From: Poseidonia sp.
Lineage (GTDB): Archaea > Thermoplasmatota > Poseidoniia > Poseidoniales > Poseidoniaceae
Direction: 5' to 3'
Assembly (NCBI GenBank): GCA_965661285.1
Contig: CBFIDD010000005.1
Span: forward strand, 75,094 to 139,093
Length of the DNA: 64,000 nucleotides
Below, one piece after another: positions 3,001 through 64,000 of this stretch (its first letter is position 1; the number at the start of each line of letters is the position of its first letter). Made by a program: the position numbers and the translations under genes. The notes under the pieces are model-generated. The model was not told where the DNA came from, did no database searches, and saw only the letters and a program-made list of their open reading frames with translations.

Positions 3001-6000
3001 TGTTCCACCACTGGCCGGACACCACGCTCACCATGAGCGTATCACCCGACAATTCCATGCTGACGATGTCGCCGCCGTTCTGACCGACCTGGGCGCCGAT
3101 GTCGAGGTTGGTCAAGGCAGTCAGATTGGCCACGTCGAGCCGGCTGACTTCATCGCTCTGGTCGCCCGCATGGTAGTACAGGATGTTGTTGTGAATCATC
3201 ATGTCTCGTGGGGCGCCGTTGGCGTTGTACAGGCTGCTGGAACGCTCGATATCGTAAGCCTCGCCCCCAGTTGTGACATTGATGAGTTGGAACCCATCAT
3301 CACCACCCACCCACAGAAGGTTGGGGCGGATGTCAGCCACCAGTCCGGTGACATCGTCGTTGCCGCCGTCGAGCACACCGTTGTCTTCGGTGAAGGGTGT
3401 GAGCCACTGGTTGTTGGTGATGTCGTAGCGCAAGACGCCGAGGCCCTCGGTGCCGATGTAAGCGATATTACCCATGATTTCGACCACGGCGTTGCCCGTT
3501 TGGGTGCCCTGGCCCCAATTCTCATCGTGTTGGAAATTGGATTTCGTGATGAGACCCACACCCGAATTGGTGCCGCCGTACACGTAGGTGCTGTCGAAGC
3601 CCACGCTGTAGGTGGCCCAGTTGGGCATGCCGTCGTAGACGTTCTGACAGTCGTCAATGCTCATGGTGGCGATGCTGTATTTGCAGACGCCGATGTTGGT
3701 GCCGGCGTAGAGGCTGCCACTTCCAGTACTGAATTCAACAGCGAAGTCGAAGAATTGCTGGGGGCGTGTTTGCCAGGAAGAGCCCTGGCCGAAACCGGTC
3801 ATCTGGTTGCCGTCCCACTTGCGTGCGCCCTGTTGCGTGCCGATGTAGAGGTTGGTCCCGTCGGTGTCCAAGGCGTAAATTTGGTCGGAGGGAAGTTGTC
3901 CACCGCGGTTACTTGCGATCAACGGCGAGAGAATCTCACCGGTGCTGAGGTCCTTTCGCACGACGCCAAAGCCCTGCAGGCCGAGGTGGAGGATGTCGCC
4001 GACCATGGCGACGGGCGCATTGTTGACACCGTTGATGCCGGTGGACCCCCATGGTTCAAGCCAAGTGTCGTTGATGATGTCGTACCGGAGCAGACCTTTG
4101 TCTTCGGTGGCCATGTAGGCGATGTCGTCAAAAAGCGCCACATCACCGACAAAGGAGGTCGGCAGGCCGTTGGTCGAGTCGTAGGCGGTGCAGCCGACGT
4201 TCGCTCGGTCAAAGTGGACGAACACGCCTGTTTCCAGCGACATCACAACGTTGTCATCGTTGACGGCGATGCCGAGAATATCGGCCGATGAGGGATAGCA
4301 CCCTGAGGTTCCGTCGTATGTTTGGATGGTGTTCCCGTTGCCGTCCAGTTCTTCCACAGTCGGGCTCCCTTCCATCGCGACGAACAGCGACGAAGTTCCT
4401 TGTTGCGGGTTTGTTGCGGCAACCAAGTCCACCACGTTGTCGCTCAAACTCCAAGGCGTCAACCACGCAGCATCGCCAATATCGTAGCGAAGTAACTGCA
4501 TCGAATTGTCGCCCGTTCCCACGTAGAGGATGCTGTCCACTTCCACCAGCGCCGTCATGTCGTTGGTCGATGGTGCGCTGGCGAGACGGATGTTTCCTTC
4601 CACAAAGGTCGCTTGATTGGGCGAGAGGTGAATCAAATTGCCGCTCCCATCGTCAACCAAAACGGCGTCAACCGCAGGGGATGCACCGCCGCTGGAGGGC
4701 CACTGCAACAGCGACGCGCCGTCGTTGGCAAGGCCCAGCGTCACAAGGTCGTACGTGGTGGAGAACACCCCGCTGCTGGTGTTGTAGGTGTGGAGCGAAT
4801 CGCCGCTGAGGATGAGCAAGGACGGGCCCACACGAGCCAACCCTGCGATGACATCGCTGGCCAACCAATTCCCAGCGTTCCACGTCGAGAGCCAAAAGCC
4901 GGCGACGTAATCAAAGCGCGCCAGCCCGTTGTCCGGGGACCCAAAGAGGAGTTGATTTCCGGAGGTGGCCATGTGGGTGATGCTGTCGGAATGAAGGTTG
5001 TTCGCCGAGCTCCAGGTGGAGAGTGCGCTTCCGGTGTTGGTGTCGTATCGCAGGACGCCCGCCCCTTCAAACGCAGCGTAGACGATCCCGTTGACTTCAA
5101 TCATGGAGAGAGGTGATGAAGATGTCGAGGCACCGAGGGATGAAACAGCATTCCATGCTGCACCGTCCCACTTTGAAAGGCCCACATCATTCGCTGCGAA
5201 CACTTCGCCACCGCTCGTCATCAGGAAGCGCTCGTGGTCACCATCGGCCAGCGGTGTGACGAAACTGCTGTCGGTGGTCTGGAGGGCGCGGAAGGTGCCG
5301 TCGCCCATCAAGAGGTGAAGGATGTCGGTGCTGTCATCCATGACCATGTCGAGCACGCCGCCCTCGGTGGTGTAGTCGTAGACGTCGATGATGTTCGGGT
5401 CGTTGCTGGCATGGAGGACGAAGAGGTGGTCGTTGACAGCGAGGTAGAGAAGGCCAGAATCCGGGTTGGTAACGTGGTCTCGTATCTCAACATCAAGCGG
5501 CGTGAGGGAGACGATCGGGTCGGCAGGAGCAAGAGCTTCAATGACCATCTTGGTGATTTCAGCGTCGGATGGCAAATCCCAGCCGGCACCTGAATTGCTG
5601 TTGGGGTTGAGCCGCCCCGTGTAGGTGTTGCCGGTGCTGAACGCATTTGCTTCTCCAAGTACGCCCAGCCCGCGCCAGTCAAACAACGATGTTCCAAGTC
5701 CATCAACGACGAGTTGTGGCTCCTGAATGGTCGTACCGTCTTGACCGCTGGCGCGAATTTCTAACGTGATGTTGGATAATTCTGCTCCGGGTGCGAACGC
5801 CAATTCCCAGTCAGCGCTCGCTCGTTGACCGGTTTCAGGAACCGCTCCGACGGCATCGAGGGTGACCCATCCCGTGTCGTTACTTCCTTCCAGTGGCCAT
5901 GTTACGCCGCTTGGTTCGGCGTGTGCAGAAACCATGGGCGTCGTGAGCAGAGGACCCATCGACATGAGCACCATCAGGGCTACCATCGAGAGCGCTCGTT

Positions 6001-52482: not shown

Positions 52483-55400
52483 TTAGGCCTCTTCGTCCGC
52501 TGAAGTGGCCGGAGTGCCCGCTGCATGAACAGCGGTGGCCGAGGCGAGGTCGGGAGCGGTGATGTTGTCGGCCGGCGTGCTGATGAGGCCGAGGGCGGCG
52601 GTGGTCAGCACGAGGCTGGCGAACAGGGAAAGGGCGATCATCGCCGCCGAGAAGATGCCGAAGTTGGCAAAGAGTCCCATCGGCGAGAGGGCGATGACGA
52701 GGAAGCCGGCAATGTCCGAGGTGGCCGAACCGAGCAGCGCCAAACCGCACGCACCGCCCACGGCAGCGAGCGCGTCGTTGTGGGTCTCACCGTTTTCTCT
52801 TCCTTCGCGATACCGTTCAGTGACGTGAATACAGTAGTCGATGCCCACGCCCAGCGAGATGGTCGCGATGGTGACGGTGACGATGTTGAGCGACGCCCCG
52901 GCGACGTACATCAGGCCGTAGAGCCACACGACGACGAGGAAAATCGGGACGAAGGTGACGACCGCTTGTTTGGGGGAGCGGAAACCGATGGTCAGGGAGC
53001 CGAGCACGAACACCGAACCGAGCACCAGCGAGGATTGCATCTCGTCTTGCATGGCCGTGGAGGCCGTGAATCGGGTGATGGGCCGACCGGTCAACATGAC
53101 CCACGTCAGCGGTTTGTCGTCTTCCTTCTCGCCTTCTGCTTCGTAGGTGCCGCTGGAGAGGTTGGTGAAGACCTCCAAGTCTCGCCACACTTCAGCCACG
53201 CCACCCTGCATGCCGGGGAAGTCTTCGGGCTGGGTCATGCCAAAGCGAATCTGCATCATGCCGTAGGCCGCATCCTCGCCGTTCACATCCAGCCACGGGC
53301 GGTCGGGGTCGAGGTCAACCACGGGCATGATGTAGAGCTGGACGATGCTGGCGGGAATGTCGGGAATCGGCCCGACGCCGGGCACGCCGTAAAGCGACAG
53401 GAAACCGTAGAAGAACGCCAAGCATTCACGGTCGGTCGTGTCCACCAACGGGCCGTTGCCGGCCAGTGAGCAGTTCATGCCAAAGCCGTCCACGTCGGGC
53501 TGCCAGCCGGCCGCTTCGAACGGCGTGCTGTCGAGCACGAGGCTGCCTTGGGCGGCGAACACCATCTCGTCGAGGGCGAGGATGTCAATCGTGCCGTCGG
53601 GCTGTCGGGTGATCTTGTCGGGCACGCCTTCGGGCAGGGCGTCCATGTCCTGGCGGAACTCGTCGATGGCAGCAAACACCCTCGGGTCGAGCACGTCGCC
53701 CAGAATCAGCAGGTTCGCCGGCTCGCCTTCGTCGGCGAATCGCTCGGCGATTTCGTCCACGCCGATGGCGAAGTCCGAACGCTCGTCGAGGAAATCTTCC
53801 ACGGCGAAGTCGCCTTCCAGACTGGCCATGCCCATGGCGGCGGGCACGGTCACCAGCACGGCGATGAGGGCGATGAGGGCCGCAGGTTTTCGTTGGCCCG
53901 AGCCGTAGGTTACCTGCTTGAGCCAGTCGGGGTTGACCAGCGATTTGATTTCACCCTGCTCTTTTTTGTTCTGGCGTGCTTCCAACCAGTCGTCCACACT
54001 GACCCGAATCAGCGGCGCCCACAATCCGGTGAGGATGAAAGCTGCCAGGACGCCAAGCGCCGCTTCAATGCCGAAGGAGCGCAGGGCGGCGATGTCGCTG
54101 AACAGGTTGGCGGCAAAGGCCGACATGGTCGTCAGTGACGTGAGGGTGATGGCCCGGCCGACACGGGACACGGTGATGCTGCCTGCCTCCTCCGAAGTCT
54201 TGCCGTTGGCGCGCTCTTCCTTGTAGCGATGCAGCGCGTGCAAGGAGTCGTCAATGCCCAGCGCCAGCACGAGGATGGGCAATAAATTCGAGAATTGTGA
54301 ACGGGCGATCAGGCTCAAGCCAAACCATCCGGTGATGTTGGCGAAATGACCGATGAGGCCCTGCATCCACAGCAGCGCAGCGCCCAGAGCGAACATGACG
54401 ATGGCCACGTCCGACCAGCGGCGCAGACTGACGTAGAGGAGCACGACGATGGCCAGCCCCATCATGGCGATGAGACCCGCACTGGACTGCAGTTCCCGAT
54501 TCACTTCCACGTTCACGCCTTGGCCCAACAGCAGGGTGACGGTGGTGCGGTCGTGGGAGCGCAAGTGGCCTTCGAGGTCCATGTAGGTCCATTCGGTGGC
54601 GCAACCGGCCCCTTCGGCCTGAAGTTCCAGGCATGCCTCTTCGGTGTATTGCGGAGGATGGAGCACCAACTGTCCGTCCGCCAGACGGTAGCCGCCGACT
54701 CGGAAACCTTCGTCGGTGAACTGAATCTCTTTTTCTTGGTGCGCGTCCTTCCAAACGACTTCCCAACCCATCTCTTCCAACTTCGTGCTGTCGAGTTGCA
54801 CCAGCAGCCAGGTGGAGGAACCGGTCCAGCGACCCTTGCCCCACAGGGCCCCTTCCCACGTCCCGTTGGAAAGCAACTTCCCGTAAATCGGGCCTTCTTG
54901 GTGGGCGGTGTAGTCGGCTTTGAAGCCGCGGTCAAGGGAGAGCCAGCGCAGGAAATTATTGTCCGAGGCTTCGGCCATGCGGGCCGCCGCCATGTCGATG
55001 TGAGCCTGGGTGATGTTGGCGTCGTCAAATTCCAAACAGTCGAGCGGGAAACAATCCGTCCAGTTGGTCGGAGGCTCGGTGACGACGCCCAGCGGCGTGA
55101 GGCCGGGCTGGGTGAGGATGGACGTGTTGTTCATGAAGCCGCGGAAGTGGTCGGAAAGCGAGATGGCACCGTTGGACTGATGGCCGGTCACGTCGTTCAC
55201 GAGCGGCTTGAGTGCGGGCGCCAGCGGATGTTCGAGCACGAGGTTGAGTTTCGTGTCCAACTCCTGGAGCACGGTCAGGTTGAGAATGCCACCCGTCGGG
55301 GCGTCAACCCCCGCCCACGGTTCGCCGGCCGGGGCCATTTCGGAAGGATGGGGCAGCGAAGCGTAGTCGGGCGAACCGTCGGCCATGCGGGGCACGGGTT

Positions 55401-55665
55401 GCCAGTCGTCTACGGCGGGCACGCGGTCGGGGTCGCGCGTCGAGACGAGGAACCCGAGGATGATTTCGGAGTTCGGGAACTCCTCGTTCACGATGGTTTG
55501 CGCCGTCAATTCGGGCGATTCCATCTCGTAGGATTCCATGTCGATGGGCTGGAGGGCCATCATGGCGCCTGGAATCATCAGCAGCGTGAGCAGCACGACG
55601 GCGACGTGGGCGCCTCGCTTGCGAGGCAAGAGCCACGCAGCGATACGGTCGTAGCGACGGCTCAT
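52483..55665 (-). CDS. MMPL/RND family transporter
   Basis: LALGIDDSLHALHRYKEE and LGVGIDYCIHVTERYREG; two 6-TM halves with large extracellular loops. Confidence 0.92.
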   Translation of the reverse strand: MSRRYDRIAAWLLPRKRGAHVAVVLLTLLMIPGAMMALQPIDMESYEMESPELTAQTIVNEEFPNSEIILGFLVSTRDPDRVPAVDDWQPVPRMADGSPDYASLPHPSEMAPAGEPWAGVDAPTGGILNLTVLQELDTKLNLVLEHPLAPALKPLVNDVTGHQSNGAISLSDHFRGFMNNTSILTQPGLTPLGVVTEPPTNWTDCFPLDCLEFDDANITQAHIDMAAARMAEASDNNFLRWLSLDRGFKADYTAHQEGPIYGKLLSNGTWEGALWGKGRWTGSSTWLLVQLDSTKLEEMGWEVVWKDAHQEKEIQFTDEGFRVGGYRLADGQLVLHPPQYTEEACLELQAEGAGCATEWTYMDLEGHLRSHDRTTVTLLLGQGVNVEVNRELQSSAGLIAMMGLAIVVLLYVSLRRWSDVAIVMFALGAALLWMQGLIGHFANITGWFGLSLIARSQFSNLLPILVLALGIDDSLHALHRYKEERANGKTSEEAGSITVSRVGRAITLTSLTTMSAFAANLFSDIAALRSFGIEAALGVLAAFILTGLWAPLIRVSVDDWLEARQNKKEQGEIKSLVNPDWLKQVTYGSGQRKPAALIALIAVLVTVPAAMGMASLEGDFAVEDFLDERSDFAIGVDEIAERFADEGEPANLLILGDVLDPRVFAAIDEFRQDMDALPEGVPDKITRQPDGTIDILALDEMVFAAQGSLVLDSTPFEAAGWQPDVDGFGMNCSLAGNGPLVDTTDRECLAFFYGFLSLYGVPGVGPIPDIPASIVQLYIMPVVDLDPDRPWLDVNGEDAAYGMMQIRFGMTQPEDFPGMQGGVAEVWRDLEVFTNLSSGTYEAEGEKEDDKPLTWVMLTGRPITRFTASTAMQDEMQSSLVLGSVFVLGSLTIGFRSPKQAVVTFVPIFLVVVWLYGLMYVAGASLNIVTVTIATISLGVGIDYCIHVTERYREGRENGETHNDALAAVGGACGLALLGSATSDIAGFLVIALSPMGLFANFGIFSAAMIALSLFASLVLTTAALGLISTPADNITAPDLASATAVHAAGTPATSADEEA

Positions 55666-55825
55666 GCTCCCCACCCTGAGCCACCGCCTTTTGAAGGAAT
55701 GTTTCCCTCTCTTTTCCTTTCACAGACCAAGAGAATCTCCTCTGTTGAGGCGTCGCTGTGTTCGCGAATATCGGCGAACCGCTTATGAACATGAGATTTG
55801 AGCCCTTGCTAGGGAAGGATGTGTT

Positions 55826-57127
55826 TTGACCATCATCGAAGACATCATCGACCAGGCCAACGGACTGGACACGTGGGCGCAGTATGCGCTTGGTCTTGGT
55901 CTCACGGCGCTCTCCTTACTCATCGTTCGCTTCTTGATGCAAAAGGTCATTCTCGACTTCGTCAAAGCGACCTCGTTCAAGTGGGACGACGCCCTCTACC
56001 GTCCGGCCACGCAGCGCCTCTACACCTTCATTCTCCTCGTCGGTGTCCAGCTCACTTTGCTGTGGATTCGCGGCGATGAGGACGACCTCAACGTCGCCCT
56101 TGACCCGCTGTTTAGCGCAGCCTACATCCTGCTGACGACATCGTTGGCCAGCGTGGCCGTCAAGGTCATGATTCCCGTCATCATCGAACGCTTCTCCAAC
56201 CCGTCTTCGGTCACCGTTTCGGGAAGCAATTCGCTGGTCATCTTCCTTCTGCGAGCCGCTATTTGGTTCGGCGGTCTTTACCTCGCACTGGACGAACTCG
56301 GCTTCGAGTTGGTCGGACTTCTTGCCTCTCTCGCAGTCTTCTCGCTCATCATCGGATTGGCGATGCAACAAACACTCGGGAACATTGTGAATTCCTTCAT
56401 GCTCGCCCTTGACCAACCCTTTGAAGTCGGAGATCGCATTGAGGTCGATGGCCATCTTGGGTCGGTCGTCTCTGTTGGCATTCTCTCGACAAAAGTGCTG
56501 ACCATCGGCGAGAACCTTGTCGTCATCCCGAACAACAACCTCGTGAACTCGACCGTCATCAACCACGCCCGTGGCGGTGGCGACGGTCAGGGCCGCCGCA
56601 TCTCGCTCGTGCTTGACATCGGCGTGGAATACGATGAGGACATCTCCCACGTCAAGTACACCGTGCTACAGCTGATGCGAGAATGCCCTTACATTATTGA
56701 TGTACCCGAACCACGCGTTCTGCTCAATGAACTTGGGGACTTTGCGAAAATCTTCCGAATGTATGGATGGGTTGAGGACTATTCAGACGAGTTCGTGGCC
56801 AAGGATTGGCTCTACAAAAACATCGCAGAATCCTTTGCGAAGGAAGGTATTGGAATACCATTCCCAACCGCAGTGGAAATCGCATCAGACCATCGAGAAT
56901 CCTACAACAAGCAGCGCAAGGCCACGAATGTGCGCCGCGCACGCTTGCAGATGATCAAGGAAGACAAAGCCTTGGAACGAGAGAGGGCCGAAGCCAAGTG
57001 GGAGATTGAAGCCATTACTGAGCGCCTCAAAGACCCAGAGCTTGAACGCAAGGAAAAGGCTGCTCTTGAAGACTCTCTGAGGGAACTTAACCGTGTTTTG
57101 AGCATGTTTGAAGCTGGAGACAATTGA
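55826..57127 (+). CDS. Small-conductance mechanosensitive channel (MscS family)
   Basis: IGLAMQQTLGN, PFEVGDRIEV, VVIPNNNL, IGVEYD, GIGIPFP; C-terminal coiled coil. Confidence 0.92.
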   Translation: MTIIEDIIDQANGLDTWAQYALGLGLTALSLLIVRFLMQKVILDFVKATSFKWDDALYRPATQRLYTFILLVGVQLTLLWIRGDEDDLNVALDPLFSAAYILLTTSLASVAVKVMIPVIIERFSNPSSVTVSGSNSLVIFLLRAAIWFGGLYLALDELGFELVGLLASLAVFSLIIGLAMQQTLGNIVNSFMLALDQPFEVGDRIEVDGHLGSVVSVGILSTKVLTIGENLVVIPNNNLVNSTVINHARGGGDGQGRRISLVLDIGVEYDEDISHVKYTVLQLMRECPYIIDVPEPRVLLNELGDFAKIFRMYGWVEDYSDEFVAKDWLYKNIAESFAKEGIGIPFPTAVEIASDHRESYNKQRKATNVRRARLQMIKEDKALERERAEAKWEIEAITERLKDPELERKEKAALEDSLRELNRVLSMFEAGDN

Positions 57128-57156
57128 GCCTTTGCGCTCACAGGATTTACATAGAA

Positions 57157-57174
57157 CAAACCGTTCATGATAGG
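57157..57174. repeat. Left arm of 18-bp inverted repeat flanking the HTH gene
   Basis: CAAACCGTTCATGATAGG; 17/18 identical to the reverse complement of 57832-57849. Confidence 0.8.
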
Positions 57175-57176
57175 TC

Positions 57177-57824
57177 ATGGGCGCCGTTGATTTACGCTAT
57201 ATGCAAGTGACACTTACTCTTGAGGAAGGTGCTCACCTTCCAGGTATTAGCTTGACTAACGACTTCCTGAAGGTTGAATACTTGACCAAAATAGGTTATG
57301 ATGGTAAAGGGATGCATGCTATCATTCAACTGGAATATGAAGATCCCAAGGTTCTCAATAAGCCACAGGGAGCCTATGAGATCATACGCATTCTTGAACA
57401 ATCATCAACTGCTGCACTTTGTGAAATCATTGCCACAGGTCCCCTAGCGAAGGCCTTTTCTACACTCGAACATGCTTGGTGGGTTCCACCGACGTATGTT
57501 CATCAAACTGGGATGTTGATTACCATTTGTGGGACCAAGGATGCGCTCAAAAATGCTCGTAGGGTCCTATCCGAGATTGTTGGAGACAACTTCAAAATGA
57601 AATTGGGGGGGGAATCACTATACAATCCCGAGTTCATCGACTTGCTACCAAAACGTCAACGATTGGTATTGGATAAAGCAATTGAATTGGGCTATTACGA
57701 TCGCCCAAGAGGGTGTACGCAACGCCAAATAGCCGACTCACTTGATATCAAACAGGCTACGGTCAGCGAGCATTTACAGTCTGCAGAAGCGACCATCATC
57801 CGCGCCTTCACAACCGAAGTTTGA
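57177..57824 (+). CDS. HTH-10 (bacterio-opsin activator-type) transcriptional regulator
   Basis: LPKRQRLVLDKAIELGYYDRPRGCTQRQIADSLDIKQATVSEHLQSAE. Confidence 0.9.
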   Translation: MGAVDLRYMQVTLTLEEGAHLPGISLTNDFLKVEYLTKIGYDGKGMHAIIQLEYEDPKVLNKPQGAYEIIRILEQSSTAALCEIIATGPLAKAFSTLEHAWWVPPTYVHQTGMLITICGTKDALKNARRVLSEIVGDNFKMKLGGESLYNPEFIDLLPKRQRLVLDKAIELGYYDRPRGCTQRQIADSLDIKQATVSEHLQSAEATIIRAFTTEV

Positions 57825-57881: not shown

Positions 57882-60800
57882 ATGTCCAGCGGACGCCATG
57901 CGAATTTTAACCGAGCCGTCGTTTTATCGCTCTTGATGATGCTGATGACCCAAGTCGGGTATCTCGATTCAATGAATCCGTGGACAAACGGGGAAGAAAC
58001 GCTCGACTCGGACGAAGTGATTTCACATACGTCTGCTGCAACGTCCGTGATGTATGGGAACAATTCGTTGTGGGCTCCTGACGGTAGTCAAATATGGAAT
58101 GTTGGCGATGAAATGATGGCCGTTACATCCGATGTTGTGTTTTATATCGGAGCCACTAATCAAAACCCTCAAGACTTTGAGAAATGTTTGGCTGCATACA
58201 ACTCCTCCAACATGACGAGATGGATTCCAAACATTGCAGGTCGATCAAATACCTGCTCGAGTAGTGCCCAAGTAGGCCAGTCGACGGCTGAATTCAACTT
58301 CATTACTCAAGTTGATGGACTCACATTTTTTGTCATGAAGGCCTCCTCAGGCAAGCAACAGATTCATGCCTACAATCCTGCAAACGACACGGTGTATCTT
58401 CACGACACCTCCCGTACTGGAAAAACTATTCTTGATAGTGTTGCAATTGGCAGAACAATATACTCACTGCAATATAGCCCCTGGATCATGACAGCATACA
58501 ACATTGACAATGGTTCTTCATGGGATATCTCAACTACAAACCAATATTATAATGATTTAAACGCCGTAGGAGGCAAAATTCTAGCTTTCAACAACAATAC
58601 ACAACAACCAGTTCAATCAAATCCGAATAATTGCAACAACACAGATTCATGTTATGAGCCATGGATTTACGATCCAGCCAACAACACATGGTTCAGGCCA
58701 ACAAGAGGAAACGAAATCATCAACTATTCCATTTCGACAACTGTGAACAAAGCCCTTGTCACCAATGGACAGATGTTTTGGGCTGACTCTAACTCCATCT
58801 ACGGAATGGGTGCGTGGGTGTTTGATTCATCCAACAACACATATTGGATGCTTGATGCAAATGCGTCAACAGGGATGTCAACTATCACAACTGGACGATC
58901 TCCAGCAATTCGTTCTGGAACATCAATTTTCTATCTTACCAGTCCTGAGTATTCGGTTTCCGGGCAAACCTTGTATGGCCTCGATCTTTGGGGTTACAGC
59001 ACTGTCAATTCGTCGAGTTGGCGTCTATCGAACATCACGGAATTGCACCAACCTGATGCTCAATATGGATGTTCACCACAGCTTGCCGGACTCGCCAATG
59101 GCGATTTTGTGATGTCCTTCGGGCGGGGTTTCGGTTGCAGCACGGTAGAAGTCGTATTTTATTCTTTAACCAACGACACGGCATGGCAAGTTTCTGGACT
59201 CGACTCTCCAAGCGATACCTCAAAGGTTTATTCTTTTCAGGGTCCTAGACTAATGGGGGTTTATGGGAACACTGTTTATTTGAAGGGTAAAACTGCATAC
59301 CCTTCCTATGATCATGGACTCATTGCTTATGACGCTACGAATGGTTCATCGTATTCAACAACGGTTACGGGAGGATTCATCTCTGGTATTTCCAGTAACC
59401 AGCCCGTACTCGGAAACGGGGGTCAATTCGTTTTCACGATGGGAAGTTATACCTGTAGCTGTAACCCTTCTTGGGCAGATAGCTCCAGATATTCGTTTGC
59501 AGTCTGGACACCAACCGCTATCACCGTTAGCGATGCATGGAATCTCACACCTGGTCAGCGTATCGATGGACCGATTACAGGAGGTTTGGGCGGCGCATCG
59601 GATTCGGGTGTAGGCGTTCAAAATCTAACCGCCAGCGCCGAAGGTGCGGAACTCACCGTCGGTGTGCCAATGACCAACATCACCTTCCAGTACAATGCCA
59701 GTGCAGCAAGTGGCTCAGGCAGCGGCTCAGGCACCACAACCAACGGCAACGGAACAACATGGGAGGTGGCTGATATCCGCAGCGGAGCAACCGGCAGCTA
59801 CCCCGGACAATACATGGAGATACTCGTCGGTGATACGCTCTATTTCAGTGCGGGTGATACAAGCGGCGGCACAGAACTGTGGGCTCATGATACCTCAAGC
59901 GCCTCAACGTGGCGGGTGGCTGATATCCGCATCGGAGCATTCGGCAGCAACCCTGGACAATACATGGTGATACTCGTCGGTGATACGCTCTACTTCAGTG
60001 CGGGTGATACAAGCGGCGGCACAGAACTGTGGGCTCATGATACCTCAAACGCCTCAACGTGGCGGGTGGCTGATATCAACAGCGGAGCAAGCGGCAGCAA
60101 CCCCGGAGATCACATGGCGATACTCGTCGGTGATACGCTCTACTTCGATGCGACTGATGGAAGCAGCGGCGACGAACTCTGGGCTCATGATACCTCAAAC
60201 GCCTCAACGTGGCGGGTGGCTGATATCCGCAGCGGATCAAGCAGCAGTAGCCCCGGACAATACATGGCGATACCCGTCGGTGATACGCTCTACTTCAGTG
60301 CGAATGGTGGTAACGGCCACGAACTGTGGGCTCATGATACCTCAAACGCCTCAACGTGGCAGGTGGCTGATATTCACAGCGGAGGGAGCAGCAGCACCCC
60401 CGGAATTTACATGGCGATACTCGTCGGTGATACGCTCTACTTCAGTGCGCATAGTCCAAGCAGCGGCTACGAACTGTGGGCTCATGATACCTCAAACGCC
60501 TCAACGTGGCAGGTGGCTGATATCCGCAGCGGAGCAACCGGCAGCAACCCCGGATATTACATGGCGATACTCGTCGGTGATACGCTCTACTTCGATGCGG
60601 ATGATGGAAGCGGCGGCATAGAACTGTGGGCTCATGATACCTCAAACGCCTCAACGTGGCAGGTGGCTGATATCCGCAGCGGAGCAAGCGGCAGCAACCC
60701 CGGAGATCACATGGCGATACTCGTCGGTGATACGCTCTACTTCGATGCGTATGATGGAAACAGCGGCCAAGAACTGTGGGCTCATGATACCTCAAACGCC

Positions 60801-63800
60801 TCAACCTGGCAGGTGACTGATATCCGCAGCGGAGCAAGCGACAGCGACCCCGGACAATACATGGCGATACTCGTCGGTGATACGCTCTACTTCAGTGCGA
60901 TTGATGGAAGCAACGGCCACGAACTGTGGGCTCATGATACCTCAAACGCCTCAACGTGGCAGGTGGCTGATATTTACAGCGGAGGAAGCCACAGCAACCC
61001 TGGACAATACATGGTGATACTCGTCGGTGATACGCTCTACTTCAGTGCGCAGGGAAGCAGCGGCCGCGAACTGTGGGCGCACCAACCATCCGAGATTACC
61101 TCACTTGGAGGCGGCTCAGGCAGCGGCTCCGGTAGCGGCTCTGGCAGCGGCTCAGGCACCACAACCAACGGCAACGGAACAACATGGCGGGTGGCTGATA
61201 TTCACGGCGGAACTGGCAGCAGCACCCCCGGAAGTTACATGGAGATACTCGTCGGTGATACGCTCTACTTCAATGCGAATGGTGGTAACGGCCACGAACT
61301 GTGGGCTCATGATACCTCAAACGCCTCAACGTGGCGGGTGGCTGATTTTAACAGCGGTTCATCAGCCAGTTACCCCGGAAATACCTTCGCGATGCTCGTC
61401 GGCGATACGCTCTACTTCAATGCGCATGATGCAAGCAGCGGCCACGAACTGTGGGCTCATGATACCTCAAACACCTCAATGTGGCAGGTGGCTGATATTT
61501 ACAGCGGAACTAGCAGCAGTAGCTCCGGACTATCCATGGAGATACTCGTCGGTGATACAATCTACTTCGATGCGTCTGATGGAAGCAGCGGCCGCGAACT
61601 GTGGGCGCATGATACCTCAAACGCCTCAACGTGGCAGGTGACTGATATCGACAGCGGATCAAGCAGCAACCCCGGAGATAACATGGCGATACTCGTCGGT
61701 GATACGCTCTACTTCAGTGCGGATGATGGTACCACCAGCACAGAACTGTGGGCTCATGATACCTCAAACGCCTCAACGTGGCAGGTGGCTGATATTAACA
61801 GCGGAGGAAGCGCCGGCAACCCCGGATATTTCATGGACATACTCGTCGGTGATACGCTCTACTTCAGTGCGACTGATGGAAACAGCGGCCACGAACTGTG
61901 GGCTCATGATACCTCAAACGCCTCAACGTGGCAGGTGGCTGATATTAACAGCGGAACATTCGGCAGCAACCCCGGAACTACCATGACGATACTCGTCGGT
62001 GATACGTTCTACTTCAATGCGAATGATGGAAGCAGCGGCTACGAACTGTGGGCTCATGATACCTCAAACGCCTCAACGTGGCAGGTGGCTGATATCCGCA
62101 GCGGAGCAAGCGACAGCAGCCCCGGACAATACACGGAGATACTCGTCGGTGATACGCTCTACTTCGATGCGAATGATGGAACCAGCAGCCACGAACTGTG
62201 GGCTCATGATACCTCAAACGCCTCAACGTGGCAGGTGGCTGATATTTTCAGCGGAACGCTCACCAGTGGAACCGGATATTACATGATGATACTCGTCGGT
62301 GATACGCTCTACTTCGATGCGGATGATGGAAGCGGCGGCATAGAACTGTGGGCTCATGATACCTCAAACGCCTCAACGTGGCGGGTGGCTAATATCCGTA
62401 GCGATTCAGCCTCCAGTACCCCCGGACAATACATGGGGATACTCGTCGGTGATACAATCTACTTCGATGCGAATGATGGAAACAGCGGCACCGAACTGTG
62501 GGCTCACCAACCAGGTGAAATCACCTCACTGAGCAGCGGCTCAAGCAGCGGCTCAGGCAGCGGCTCAGGCAGCGGCTCGGGCAGCGGCATGACCAACGTC
62601 ACCGGTGCAACCTGCAGCGTTTCACCTTCTCTTCCAACCGGCCTATCCATCGACAGCAGCACGTGCACCATCAGCGGTACACCAACGGTTGCGACGAGCA
62701 ACACGACCTACACGGTCACCGCCGTCATCAGTGGAACGACCTTCCAGACGGCCGTTTGGTTGTCCACGTCTCCGTACGGCACCATCACCTCAGCGGTGGA
62801 AGGTGCGGCGCTCAACTTGGGTGAAGCAATGACGCCGATTTCGCTCAACTACACTTCACAGGCGCCTGCAGGGTCATTTTACAGCGGAAACGGATCGTAT
62901 TGGATGACCAAAGACATCAGACCCCAACCATCCAGTTCTACTCCCATAAACCAGAAATCAAGTATGAGCACCCAAAATAATGCTCTTGTTTCAATGGGAG
63001 ACTTTGCCTATTTCGCAGCAACAAACGGAACAGTTAACGGTTTGTGGAAGAGCGATGGCACGGAATCTGGAACAGTTCTGGTCAAAGAACATCTTTGGCC
63101 AAGTTGGATGGTGAGCGATGGAAATTCCCTGTACTTCCATAATGGTTCGATGGAATTGTGGATGAGCGATGGAACAACTTCCGGTACAGTGTTGCTCAAG
63201 GAATTTAATCAAACAAACACGAGTGGTAGCTCTATTCTAACCAGTGCCCTAGGTGTCTTTGCAAACGGTCTTATGTTCTTCGTTGCCGATGATGACAATG
63301 GAAGGGAATTATGGTCGACTGATGGCACCACTTCTGGAACTCAAATGGTAAAAGACATCCGTCCTGGATATCCTTCTACTCAGACTTACAACCCGTATGA
63401 TGGTTTGTCAAGCCAATACCTCACCGTGCTTGGAAATCATGTGTATTTCGGAGCCAACGACGGAACCAACGGAAGCGAGTTGTGGAAGAGCGACGGAACG
63501 GAATCCGGTACAGTGATGGTCAACGACATAAACAGTGGAAGTGGCGACAGCTTCCAGTCTGTTTGTGCTAACTGCATGGCTGTTCTAGACAACAATATCT
63601 ACTTCTCAGCCTATACCGCAGCCAACGGTATTGAATTGTGGAAGAGTGACGGAACGGCCTCAGGCACATTGATGGTCAAAGACATCAATACGGGCACTCA
63701 GACTAGCCTTTCCCAGTTCCAGATCGTTGCTACAGAAGAGAAAATCCTCTTTATAGCGAATGATGGAATACATGGAGATGAATTGTGGAAGAGTGACGGG

Positions 63801-64000
63801 ACTGCAGCAGGAACAGCATTGTTGTCGGAATTGACTCCAACAGCTGCAGGCTCAACAATCTCACACATGACATCAATGGGTGAATTGGTATTTTTCCACG
63901 TCTATGTAAATGGTGGTGGAATATCGTACAGGGCCGCGTTTGTTTCTGATGGGACCCCAGAAGGAACATTTGCGGTTGTAAATTCGTCAAGCCTCGGCTC
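57882..64000 (+). CDS. Giant secreted surface protein with ELWxxDGT-type beta-propeller repeats and putative Ig (He_PIG-like) domains; 3' end outside window, >2000 aa
   Basis: MSSGRHANFNRAVVLSLLMMLMTQVGYLDS signal. The frame checked at start, repeats and end is the same (...FVSDGTPEGTFAVVNSSSLG). ELWAHDTSN/ELWAHQP blades x18, SPSLPTGLSIDSSTCTISGTP, ELW(K/M)SDGT and ELWSTDGT repeats. Confidence 0.9.
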   Translation, partial: MSSGRHANFNRAVVLSLLMMLMTQVGYLDSMNPWTNGEETLDSDEVISHTSAATSVMYGNNSLWAPDGSQIWNVGDEMMAVTSDVVFYIGATNQNPQDFEKCLAAYNSSNMTRWIPNIAGRSNTCSSSAQVGQSTAEFNFITQVDGLTFFVMKASSGKQQIHAYNPANDTVYLHDTSRTGKTILDSVAIGRTIYSLQYSPWIMTAYNIDNGSSWDISTTNQYYNDLNAVGGKILAFNNNTQQPVQSNPNNCNNTDSCYEPWIYDPANNTWFRPTRGNEIINYSISTTVNKALVTNGQMFWADSNSIYGMGAWVFDSSNNTYWMLDANASTGMSTITTGRSPAIRSGTSIFYLTSPEYSVSGQTLYGLDLWGYSTVNSSSWRLSNITELHQPDAQYGCSPQLAGLANGDFVMSFGRGFGCSTVEVVFYSLTNDTAWQVSGLDSPSDTSKVYSFQGPRLMGVYGNTVYLKGKTAYPSYDHGLIAYDATNGSSYSTTVTGGFISGISSNQPVLGNGGQFVFTMGSYTCSCNPSWADSSRYSFAVWTPTAITVSDAWNLTPGQRIDGPITGGLGGASDSGVGVQNLTASAEGAELTVGVPMTNITFQYNASAASGSGSGSGTTTNGNGTTWEVADIRSGATGSYPGQYMEILVGDTLYFSAGDTSGGTELWAHDTSSASTWRVADIRIGAFGSNPGQYMVILVGDTLYFSAGDTSGGTELWAHDTSNASTWRVADINSGASGSNPGDHMAILVGDTLYFDATDGSSGDELWAHDTSNASTWRVADIRSGSSSSSPGQYMAIPVGDTLYFSANGGNGHELWAHDTSNASTWQVADIHSGGSSSTPGIYMAILVGDTLYFSAHSPSSGYELWAHDTSNASTWQVADIRSGATGSNPGYYMAILVGDTLYFDADDGSGGIELWAHDTSNASTWQVADIRSGASGSNPGDHMAILVGDTLYFDAYDGNSGQELWAHDTSNASTWQVTDIRSGASDSDPGQYMAILVGDTLYFSAIDGSNGHELWAHDTSNASTWQVADIYSGGSHSNPGQYMVILVGDTLYFSAQGSSGRELWAHQPSEITSLGGGSGSGSGSGSGSGSGTTTNGNGTTWRVADIHGGTGSSTPGSYMEILVGDTLYFNANGGNGHELWAHDTSNASTWRVADFNSGSSASYPGNTFAMLVGDTLYFNAHDASSGHELWAHDTSNTSMWQVADIYSGTSSSSSGLSMEILVGDTIYFDASDGSSGRELWAHDTSNASTWQVTDIDSGSSSNPGDNMAILVGDTLYFSADDGTTSTELWAHDTSNASTWQVADINSGGSAGNPGYFMDILVGDTLYFSATDGNSGHELWAHDTSNASTWQVADINSGTFGSNPGTTMTILVGDTFYFNANDGSSGYELWAHDTSNASTWQVADIRSGASDSSPGQYTEILVGDTLYFDANDGTSSHELWAHDTSNASTWQVADIFSGTLTSGTGYYMMILVGDTLYFDADDGSGGIELWAHDTSNASTWRVANIRSDSASSTPGQYMGILVGDTIYFDANDGNSGTELWAHQPGEITSLSSGSSSGSGSGSGSGSGSGMTNVTGATCSVSPSLPTGLSIDSSTCTISGTPTVATSNTTYTVTAVISGTTFQTAVWLSTSPYGTITSAVEGAALNLGEAMTPISLNYTSQAPAGSFYSGNGSYWMTKDIRPQPSSSTPINQKSSMSTQNNALVSMGDFAYFAATNGTVNGLWKSDGTESGTVLVKEHLWPSWMVSDGNSLYFHNGSMELWMSDGTTSGTVLLKEFNQTNTSGSSILTSALGVFANGLMFFVADDDNGRELWSTDGTTSGTQMVKDIRPGYPSTQTYNPYDGLSSQYLTVLGNHVYFGANDGTNGSELWKSDGTESGTVMVNDINSGSGDSFQSVCANCMAVLDNNIYFSAYTAANGIELWKSDGTASGTLMVKDINTGTQTSLSQFQIVATEEKILFIANDGIHGDELWKSDGTAAGTALLSELTPTAAGSTISHMTSMGELVFFHVYVNGGGISYRAAFVSDGTPEGTFAVVNSSSLG
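59760..61104 (+). repeat. Intragenic tandem repeat block 1: nine 147-150 bp units
   Basis: Unit starts 59760, 59910, 60060, 60210, 60357, 60507, 60657, 60807, 60957; consensus WxVADIxSGxxxSxPGxxMxILVGDTLYFxAxDGxxGxELWAHDTSNAST. Confidence 0.93.
61185..62529 (+). repeat. Intragenic tandem repeat block 2: nine 147-150 bp units
   Basis: Unit starts 61185, 61332, 61482, 61632, 61779, 61929, 62079, 62229, 62379; same consensus, ends HQPGEITSL plus a GS linker as in block 1. Confidence 0.93.

Follow-up and report, generated by a model that had tools for sequence, protein, structure and literature searches.

The WD40 repeats encoded by het-d, het-e, and NWD genes of the fungus Podospora anserina, as the repeat-evolution sections of two papers describe them (PMC1805685, PMC4986451), evolve in concert, carry four positively selected codons per repeat on the interaction surface, and are shuffled. 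In prokaryotes, the main text of Hu et al. 2017 (PMC5587647) describes Highly-Repetitive (HR) WD40 proteins, with internal identities of at least 0.7, in which the predicted interaction hotspots are diverse and the other sites are conserved. The locus described here lies at the end of a 64,000-nucleotide stretch of a Poseidonia sp. genome (assembly GCA_965661285.1, contig CBFIDD010000005.1, positions 75,094 to 139,093), which is called the window below, and consists of two tandem repeat arrays, A and B, within a gene for a giant surface protein. The reading that we favor, with a probability of about 0.72, is that the arrays form two nine-bladed ELWxxDGT propellers, the blades of which evolve in concert and one face of which is under diversifying selection. 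This evolutionary mode is already known from the WD40 repeats of fungal NOD-like receptors (NLRs) and has been noted in prokaryotic WD40 proteins; what is new is its setting in an archaeal surface protein.

Tandem Repeats Finder placed array A at 59755-61078 (period 150, 8.9 copies, 88% matches) and array B at 61180-62506 (period 150, 8.9 copies, 82% matches). A preliminary description, made from the letters of the window, had counted 18 units of about 150 bp in two nine-unit arrays, and this count was borne out: read in frame, there are 18 units of 49 to 50 codons, with a mean pairwise identity of 83% at the nucleotide level and 71% at the residue level (0.86 and 0.74, respectively, for the 16 nonterminal units). 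The scaffold 21-mer that it quoted recurs in 16 of the 18 units (13 exact and 3 with one mismatch), and the quoted 39-mer also recurs in 16 (11 exact, 4 with one mismatch, and 1 with two mismatches), the units without the 39-mer being the two array-terminal ones; 100 shuffles gave zero matches to either. The scaffold had also been called frozen, and it is indeed conserved, but not frozen at synonymous sites, where the proportion of differences (pS) is 0.12 to 0.13 and the number of substitutions per site (dS) is about 0.10 to 0.15. Rare codons are nevertheless uniform in it, as seen for ATA, which makes up 4% of the Ile codons genome-wide, yet occupies column 21 in 17 of the 18 units. Thirteen columns (7, 10, 11, 12, 14, 17, 18, 20, 32, 34, 35, 36, and 38) hold at least four different residues and are referred to as variable. 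All five of the previously quoted codon series are present, at column 7 (CGC/AAC/CAC/TAC/GAC/TTC, plus the unlisted CGT), column 12 (GGC/AGC/GAC/GCC/CAC/ACC/TCC), column 14 (AAC/AGC/ACC/TAC/GAC, plus the unlisted GGA), column 20 (GCG/GAG/GTG/ACG/ATG/GGG, plus the unlisted GAC), and column 32 (AAT/GAT/GGT/ACT/CAT/TAT/ATT/TCT, plus the unlisted CAG). The third base is mostly kept in the loops, as had been remarked: 205 of the 233 cells of the variable columns carry the majority third base, compared with 121 ± 6.4 expected from genome codon usage for the same residues, and 0 of 5,000 simulations reached 205. The frequencies of nonconsensus cells in the variable codons are 0.339 at position 1, 0.330 at position 2, and 0.120 at position 3.

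Profile scores assign the units to the ELWxxDGT repeat family, TIGR04534 (ELWxxDGT_rpt), and place them as direct members of this family and of the DUF5050 beta-propellers (PF16472). Array A scores 368.2 bits against a cutoff of 65, in eight stretches of the 47-position model, and the region at 62547-63998 scores 312.6 bits in six stretches. At an E value of ≤0.001, this very large family counts 30,928 cluster representatives, of which 10,614 remain at ≤1e-30. AlphaFold2, run on array A with an eight-sequence array alignment, gave a pLDDT of 80.5, a pTM of 0.83, and 36 strands (9 × 4), and array A is accordingly modeled as a closed nine-bladed beta-propeller. The Foldseek matches listed against the PDB (ranks 1 to 50) have TM scores of 0.4 to 0.5, and their titles include tricorn, Tako8, Fbw7, BamB, and sortilin, all of which we take to be beta-propellers; a sequence search for solved relatives returned no PDB chain at an E value of ≤1. 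The predicted strands of each unit occupy columns 49-4, 20-23, 26-32, and 38-44, with a lower model confidence in the long loop (block means of 63 to 74). Since the connections of an antiparallel meander alternate between the sheet ends, the loops at columns 5-19 and 33-37 are expected on the same face. All 13 variable columns lie within or beside these two loops, and the turns formed by columns 24-25 and by columns 45-48 contain none of them; the structure prediction that the preliminary description had called for thus puts every variable column on one predicted propeller face. On the opposite face, the prediction puts two turns, the invariant GD at columns 24-25 and TSNA(S) at columns 45-48. 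Fifteen of the 18 units retain an N-A-S sequon at columns 47-49, which would lie across the propeller from the variable loops.

Substitution rates were estimated by the pairwise Nei-Gojobori method (NG86) over the 153 unit pairs of the window. In the 18 units, the variable columns have 0.69 nonsynonymous substitutions per site (dN), a dS of 0.22, and a dN/dS ratio (omega) of 3.1, and the scaffold columns have a dN of 0.08, a dS of 0.146, and an omega of 0.54. Because picking columns by their variability is circular, the columns were chosen again from 63 nonterminal units of other genomes, and 11 of the 13 columns obtained in this way coincide with the window-defined set. Over the 16 nonterminal window units, the rechosen columns have a dN of 0.693, a dS of 0.183, and an omega of 3.8, and the remaining 37 columns have a dN of 0.051, a dS of 0.091, and an omega of 0.56; a column bootstrap of the dN of the variable columns over the dS of all columns gave 6.2, ranging from 3.7 to 11.6. 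An independent test was provided by two genomes of the same genus, G009 and G012, which carry 3,900-residue orthologues with few differences and an array dS of about 0.065. In their one nine-unit array, the window-defined variable columns show 33.8 nonsynonymous (Nd) and 5.2 synonymous (Sd) differences, with an omega of 2.1, and the scaffold shows an Nd of 14, an Sd of 13, and an omega of 0.29 (Fisher P = 0.002 for scaffold versus variable columns). Among 31 related arrays of at least seven units each, 10 are internally homogeneous (scaffold dS of 0.10 to 0.20), and in all 10 of these the ratio of the variable-column dN to the scaffold dS is 2.4 to 6.2. The alignment and dN/dS calculation proposed earlier thus yielded a ratio above 1 that is confined to the loops, and homogenized arrays with a variable face are widespread among Poseidoniaceae genomes.

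The units also bear traces of exchange. A tree that also included units from six other arrays put all 18 units of the window in one clade with short branches, in which arrays A and B were intermixed. In a tree of 88 units from the ten homogeneous arrays, 14 of the 16 nonterminal window units formed a window-only clade, and terminal units from different genomes clustered together, as is expected if array ends escape homogenization. At two columns, the window has synonymous states of its own: column 13 reads AGC in 11 of 16 units, against an AGT majority in all seven other arrays, and column 50 reads ACG in 14 of 16, against ACT in the others. Between G009 and G012, columns 1-16 (48 nt) of G009 unit 3 show 2 differences from G012 unit 6 versus 10 from the positional partner, G012 unit 3, and columns 17-50 (102 nt) match G012 unit 3, with 0 and 2 differences in two segments; the matrices for this pair contain similar switches at units 7/8 and 4/2. 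The window loops are likewise mosaic, with units 6 and 17 having identical loop-3 DNA, yet lying 13 nt apart in loop 1, and units 4 and 10 behaving in the same way. The sharing of lineage-specific synonymous states, together with the 48-nt loop tract that moved between blades, indicates concerted evolution by short-tract gene conversion. Exactly nine blades are present in 25 of the 31 related arrays, and the six with seven or eight units include arrays at contig ends; this retention of the unit number through homogenization favors gene conversion over unequal crossing-over. In the nine-unit arrays L015 (genome G011) and L016 (genome G022), units 1 to 6 and 9 are near-identical, but differences run through the whole of units 7 and 8, as though these two blades had been replaced. 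The dS between G009 and G012 runs from 0 to 0.96 along the gene, which suggests mosaic recombination between lineages.

The preliminary description had offered, as one option, a variable ligand-binding surface diversified by strong selection together with repeat homogenization, and every test run supports this option: a dN/dS ratio above 1 confined to the loops, one predicted face, spreading synonymous markers, and a conversion tract between two genomes. Short-tract gene conversion between units would homogenize the four-strand scaffold, down to its synonymous sites, and would also carry loop segments from blade to blade, with the blade number staying at nine. Each blade would have about 13 residues under positive diversifying selection, located in the long loop that joins strands 1 and 2 (columns 5-19), in the loop that joins strands 3 and 4 (columns 33-37), and in the adjoining strand ends. 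The variable face may bind a partner that is diverse or changes fast, for example, a virus, a particle ligand, or another cell, and might be a virus-exposed surface, an adhesin, or a recognition module or serve in antigenic variation or virus evasion. The results single out one face of a recurring nine-blade module as positively selected and as evolving faster than any other part of the cell surface, which makes it a concrete target for binding studies and for studies of covariation with Poseidoniales viruses. They also extend concerted blade evolution combined with diversifying selection on a propeller face to archaea, to an extracellular protein, and to a very large repeat family.

Several points weigh against this interpretation. 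Pairwise NG86 is crude for recombining paralogues and is not a recombination-aware site model; relating the loop dN to the scaffold dS inflates omega if conversion tracts skip the loops; and the dS estimated within the loops stands on only about 8 synonymous sites. The related arrays are partly kin (for example, L019 with L024 and L020 with L022), and since several of the 10 homogeneous ones are orthologues of each other, these do not amount to 10 independent replicates. The other 21 of the 31 arrays are not homogeneous, and their dS is high or saturated, such that an omega above 1 is not demonstrable there. The unit trees were interpreted without support values, and two nonterminal window units fall outside the window clade in the 88-unit tree. 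The placement of the variable columns on one face derives from predicted secondary structure and the standard meander topology, not from measured distances.

A tentative and rather doubtful extension of the propeller interpretation is that Poseidoniaceae possess a combinatorial surface-variation system, in which gene conversion shuffles loop segments among homogenized blades and pressure from viruses or grazers keeps the diversity. Besides the ELWxxDGT arrays, such a system would apparently include the RCC1-like arrays found in giant proteins of this class. The NLR repeat repertoire of fungi, or the cassette-based antigenic variation of bacteria, would then have an extracellular counterpart in archaea. 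Poseidoniaceae are Marine Group II archaea, which are uncultured and abundant, and the system would thus operate in an uncultured lineage that ranks among the most abundant in the ocean.

Among the other explanations, the one that survives best, although it is unlikely, is a fixed asymmetric binding site after recent amplification, in which the loops diversified once toward one stable ligand, with no continuing arms race or between-strain variation. An asymmetric ligand needs unlike blades on a nine-blade face. The population data, which consist of Logan contigs from four runs of four studies in pieces of about 80 to 150 nt within the arrays, none of which spans an array, also speak for it: the numbers of placed contigs that are at least 99% alike are 149 of 223, 127 of 221, 101 of 155, and 75 of 117 in the four runs, and many pieces recur letter for letter in runs from all four studies, which argues against rapid turnover. 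On the other hand, at an array dS of about 0.065 the loops of G009 and G012 still have an omega of 2.1, and a loop tract has moved between their blades; the arrays of G011 and G022 differ throughout units 7 and 8 while their other units match. In addition, all 12 listed variants inside the arrays in the other samples are nonsynonymous loop changes, although these may partly be misplaced paralogues, compared with 9 synonymous changes among the 11 listed in the flanks. Since 75, 84, 59, and 46 contigs in the four runs fit two places, and the variants may in part reflect misplaced paralogous units or the arrays of related strains, this pattern is a hint rather than evidence. A 949-nt skip (60979 to 61929) in runs X2 and X3 was considered as a true deletion and rejected, the shorter side of the joint having only 26 letters.

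Recent amplification with relaxed constraint, in which purifying selection holds the scaffold and the unconstrained loops change by neutral drift, is less probable still. Loops generally tolerate change, and the same columns are the most variable ones in old, nonhomogeneous arrays (dN of 0.8 to 1.7 in variable columns and 0.2 to 0.4 in the scaffold), as this explanation would have it. Neutral drift, however, cannot raise omega above 1, and the loop codons reach 3.1 to 3.8 on their own dS, with a lower bootstrap bound of 3.7 against the dS of all columns; the divergence at positions 1 and 2 of these codons is about 2.8-fold that at position 3. A single amplification would also leave unexplained the window-specific synonymous states found in 11 and 14 of 16 units and the conversion tract that postdates the divergence of G009 and G012.

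A diversity-generating retroelement (DGR) or another targeted hypermutation system that rewrites the loops is very improbable. It had been raised in the preliminary description because the NNC/NNT spectra superficially resemble the AAY-to-NNY output of such elements, and since the genome is 93% complete, a reverse transcriptase could sit in the missing part. However, neither the reverse transcriptase nor the template copy that was to be searched for turned up elsewhere in the genome: RVT_1 (PF00078) had no match in the 93.23% complete genome (the same search was positive in 3 of 14 control genomes), and a blastn search with array A (E value of ≤1e-3) across all eight contigs matched only C5:134848-137623, which is the arrays themselves. 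No adenine bias was found at positions 1 and 2 of the variable codons, where the nonconsensus fractions are 0.325 for A, 0.433 for C, and 0.298 for G. The preliminary description had called the scaffold adenines untouched, and A is kept in at least 16 of the 18 units at 24 sites and in all 18 at 10 of these. A position-blind hypermutator would also raise the third positions of the loops, which are not hypermutated (0.120 versus 0.33), and the same loop sequences recur in samples of four studies. The predicted target fold is a propeller, and to our knowledge, the known DGR targets are C-type lectin or immunoglobulin (Ig) folds. The arrays share with DGRs the variation at codon positions 1 and 2 of a surface that here would bind ligands, but they differ from them in having no reverse transcriptase, template repeat, or adenine specificity and in having 18 dispersed target segments instead of one C-terminal variable region. 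Third-position changes in NNC and NNT codons are mostly synonymous, and the others lead to Lys, Glu, Gln, Arg, Leu, Met, or stop codons. The kept third base and the NNC/NNT appearance are the ordinary footprint of many nonsynonymous changes on a young synonymous background and no mutational signature, and NNY-looking codon spectra can thus arise without a retroelement. Where Kaur et al. 2020 (PMC7159879) treat hypervariable repeats, their subject is DGR-linked FGS domains, and these passages have no bearing on the arrays described here.

It is equally improbable that short-read assembly of repeats produced the arrays by chimerism or collapse, for although there is a run of N in the same gene just past the window, the Logan contigs break into pieces of about 80 to 150 nt in the arrays without spanning them, and X2 and X3 contain the 949-nt skipping joint with 26 letters on its shorter side, no exact internal repeat is as long as 101 nt, exactly nine units are found in 25 of 31 arrays of independently assembled genomes, several of which have two arrays per gene as here (L021, L022, L023, and L028), the frame is open throughout, and nine blades make a confidently predicted closed fold.

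The closest parallel to the two propellers is provided by the WD40 repeats of fungal HET-D, HET-E, and NWD proteins, in which, in the published sections on these repeats, blades are homogenized, few codons per repeat are selected on one surface (a predicted one in the present case), and segments are shuffled. The marks of concerted evolution present in the window arrays are the grouping of units by genome, the spread of synonymous states, and codons with a dN/dS ratio above 1 on one predicted surface; the marks of the fungal type, namely, an internal identity of about 85%, polymorphism of the repeat number, and an NTPase domain, are absent. The fungal proteins, as characterized in those sections, are intracellular sensors with WD40 repeats and a NACHT or NB-ARC NTPase, whereas the present protein is an extracellular giant membrane protein of an archaeon with ELWxxDGT repeats, in which a Pfam scan found no NACHT/NB-ARC NTPase (the stretch behind the run of N not being scannable). 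About 13 positions per 50-residue unit vary here, compared with the 4 per 42 reported for fungal NWD repeats, and the number of blades is constant (nine in 25 of 31 arrays), whereas that of the fungal repeats is described as polymorphic. The internal residue identity of 71 to 74% is below the 85% HIC criterion given for fungal repeats in the relevant section of Dyrka et al. 2014 (PMC4986451), and RIP-type mutagenesis is not available here. With the HR WD40 proteins, the window arrays share a prokaryotic propeller in which most sites are conserved and the predicted hotspots are diverse, and they pass the HR threshold of 0.7; they belong to another family, however, and the main text on HR proteins reads the pattern as young duplication and does not show concerted evolution or conversion tracts.

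Within the ELWxxDGT family, 21 of the 31 arrays examined are old and diverged, with a saturated dS, and the window arrays are in the homogenized subset. The related loci in public genomes belong to records named Candidatus Poseidoniaceae or Poseidoniales archaeon, with a best array identity of 74 to 76%. Family members at 32 to 35% identity also occur in Stieleria, Rhodopirellula, and Bacteroidetes records (L050, L051, L052, and L054), and the repeat module is thus common to marine bacteria (Planctomycetes and Bacteroidetes) and Poseidoniaceae archaea. A literature search, with subscription journals and supplementary files outside its scope, found no paper naming the ELWxxDGT repeat, and among the papers listed, there was no link between Marine Group II and giant surface proteins, adhesins, or propellers.

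The gene that holds the arrays belongs to an assembly of 1.98 Mb in eight contigs (57% G+C, 93.23% complete). Its frame reaches C5:144905 on the whole-genome contig C5, for a total of 3,976 codons, including 32 X; these X are a run of N just past the window end (C5, after 139093), inside the diverged ELWKSDGT region, and the single frame presumes continuity across this gap, the true length of which may differ. The protein begins with an N-terminal hydrophobic helix (a signal or an anchor) and about 600 residues without a family match, followed by the two nine-unit ELW arrays with Gly-Ser linkers on both sides and by He_PIG Ig domains. Divergent ELWKSDGT repeats, TSP3-type Ca-binding repeats, and a hydrophobic stretch at about amino acids 3345-3370 come next, and a Lys/Ala/Glu-rich tail with HhH-type repeats forms the C-terminal end. 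Only DUF5050, He_PIG, TSP3_bac, and HhH-type models, plus weak ones, matched in Pfam. The product is a type I, membrane-anchored surface protein with the arrays in its ectodomain, which is strongly acidic (329 D and 115 E versus 22 K and 43 R) and contains 78 N-x-S/T sequons; the arrays have 17 of these sequons and zero lysine across 944 residues. The final units of arrays A and B have the diverged tails ELWAHQPSEITSL and ELWAHQPGEITS, respectively. The divergent ELWKSDGT region inside the window (62739..63998) is not homogenized internally. The features are listed in Table 1.

Table 1. Coordinates of the giant surface-protein gene, its repeat arrays, and adjacent features, in window positions
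Feature	Position(s)	Strand	Basis or remark
HTH_10 (archaeal Bat-type) DNA-binding protein, 215 aa, upstream neighbor	57177..57824	+	Context only
Giant surface-protein gene, 5' part	57882..64000	+	Open frame continues past the window end
Gly/Ser/Thr-rich linker GSGSGSGTTTNGNGTT into array A	59718..59759	+	Final residues are the predicted first propeller strand (model residues 13-19)
Array A, nine ELWxxDGT-type units of 49-50 codons each	59760..61106	+	Repeat finding, TIGR04534, AlphaFold2
Array A unit starts	59760, 59910, 60060, 60210, 60357, 60507, 60657, 60807, 60957	+	
Gly-Ser linker, period 12, separating the propellers	61111..61158	+	Tandem Repeats Finder
Array B, nine units	61185..62528	+	Repeat finding, alignment, unit tree
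Array B unit starts	61185, 61332, 61482, 61632, 61779, 61929, 62079, 62229, 62379	+	
Second Gly-Ser linker, period 12	62533..62588	+	Tandem Repeats Finder
He_PIG Ig-like domain, aa 1573-1619	62598..62738	+	Pfam
Divergent ELWKSDGT repeat region	62739..63998	+	TIGR04534 (6 stretches, 313 bits), DUF5050

Repeats of a second propeller family were seen in related giant proteins. In an RCC1-like region of the G009 and G012 genes (L013 on the minus strand and L014 on the plus strand; residues ~1201-1350), 16 nonsynonymous changes stand against 1 synonymous change, with an omega of 5.5, and the changes cluster beside repeated 'H.C' and 'CWG' motifs. Locus L022 (a region of CASIAI010000002.1, at open reading frame offset 1395) encodes an RCC1-like array of six units of about 50 residues, RTAVAVSAG..HTCAILDNGDLKCWG....GQLGDGGSNTNTNAPSSTA, which is internally homogeneous with a few positions differing between units, and this second family may evolve likewise.

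The genes before the giant gene (52483-57824) encode an MMPL/RND-type transporter (1,063 amino acids, minus strand), an MscS-type mechanosensitive channel (433 amino acids), and the HTH_10 regulator, which immediately precedes the giant gene. In the presumed cytoplasmic tail of the giant protein (codons ~3540-3976), a repeat of about 60 residues, KGIGPFIEEKLNALGIYT, occurs three times; its copies match the Cdd1 and IMS_HHH helix-hairpin-helix models and are set apart by Ala/Glu/Lys-rich low-complexity sequence, an odd appendage for a surface protein.

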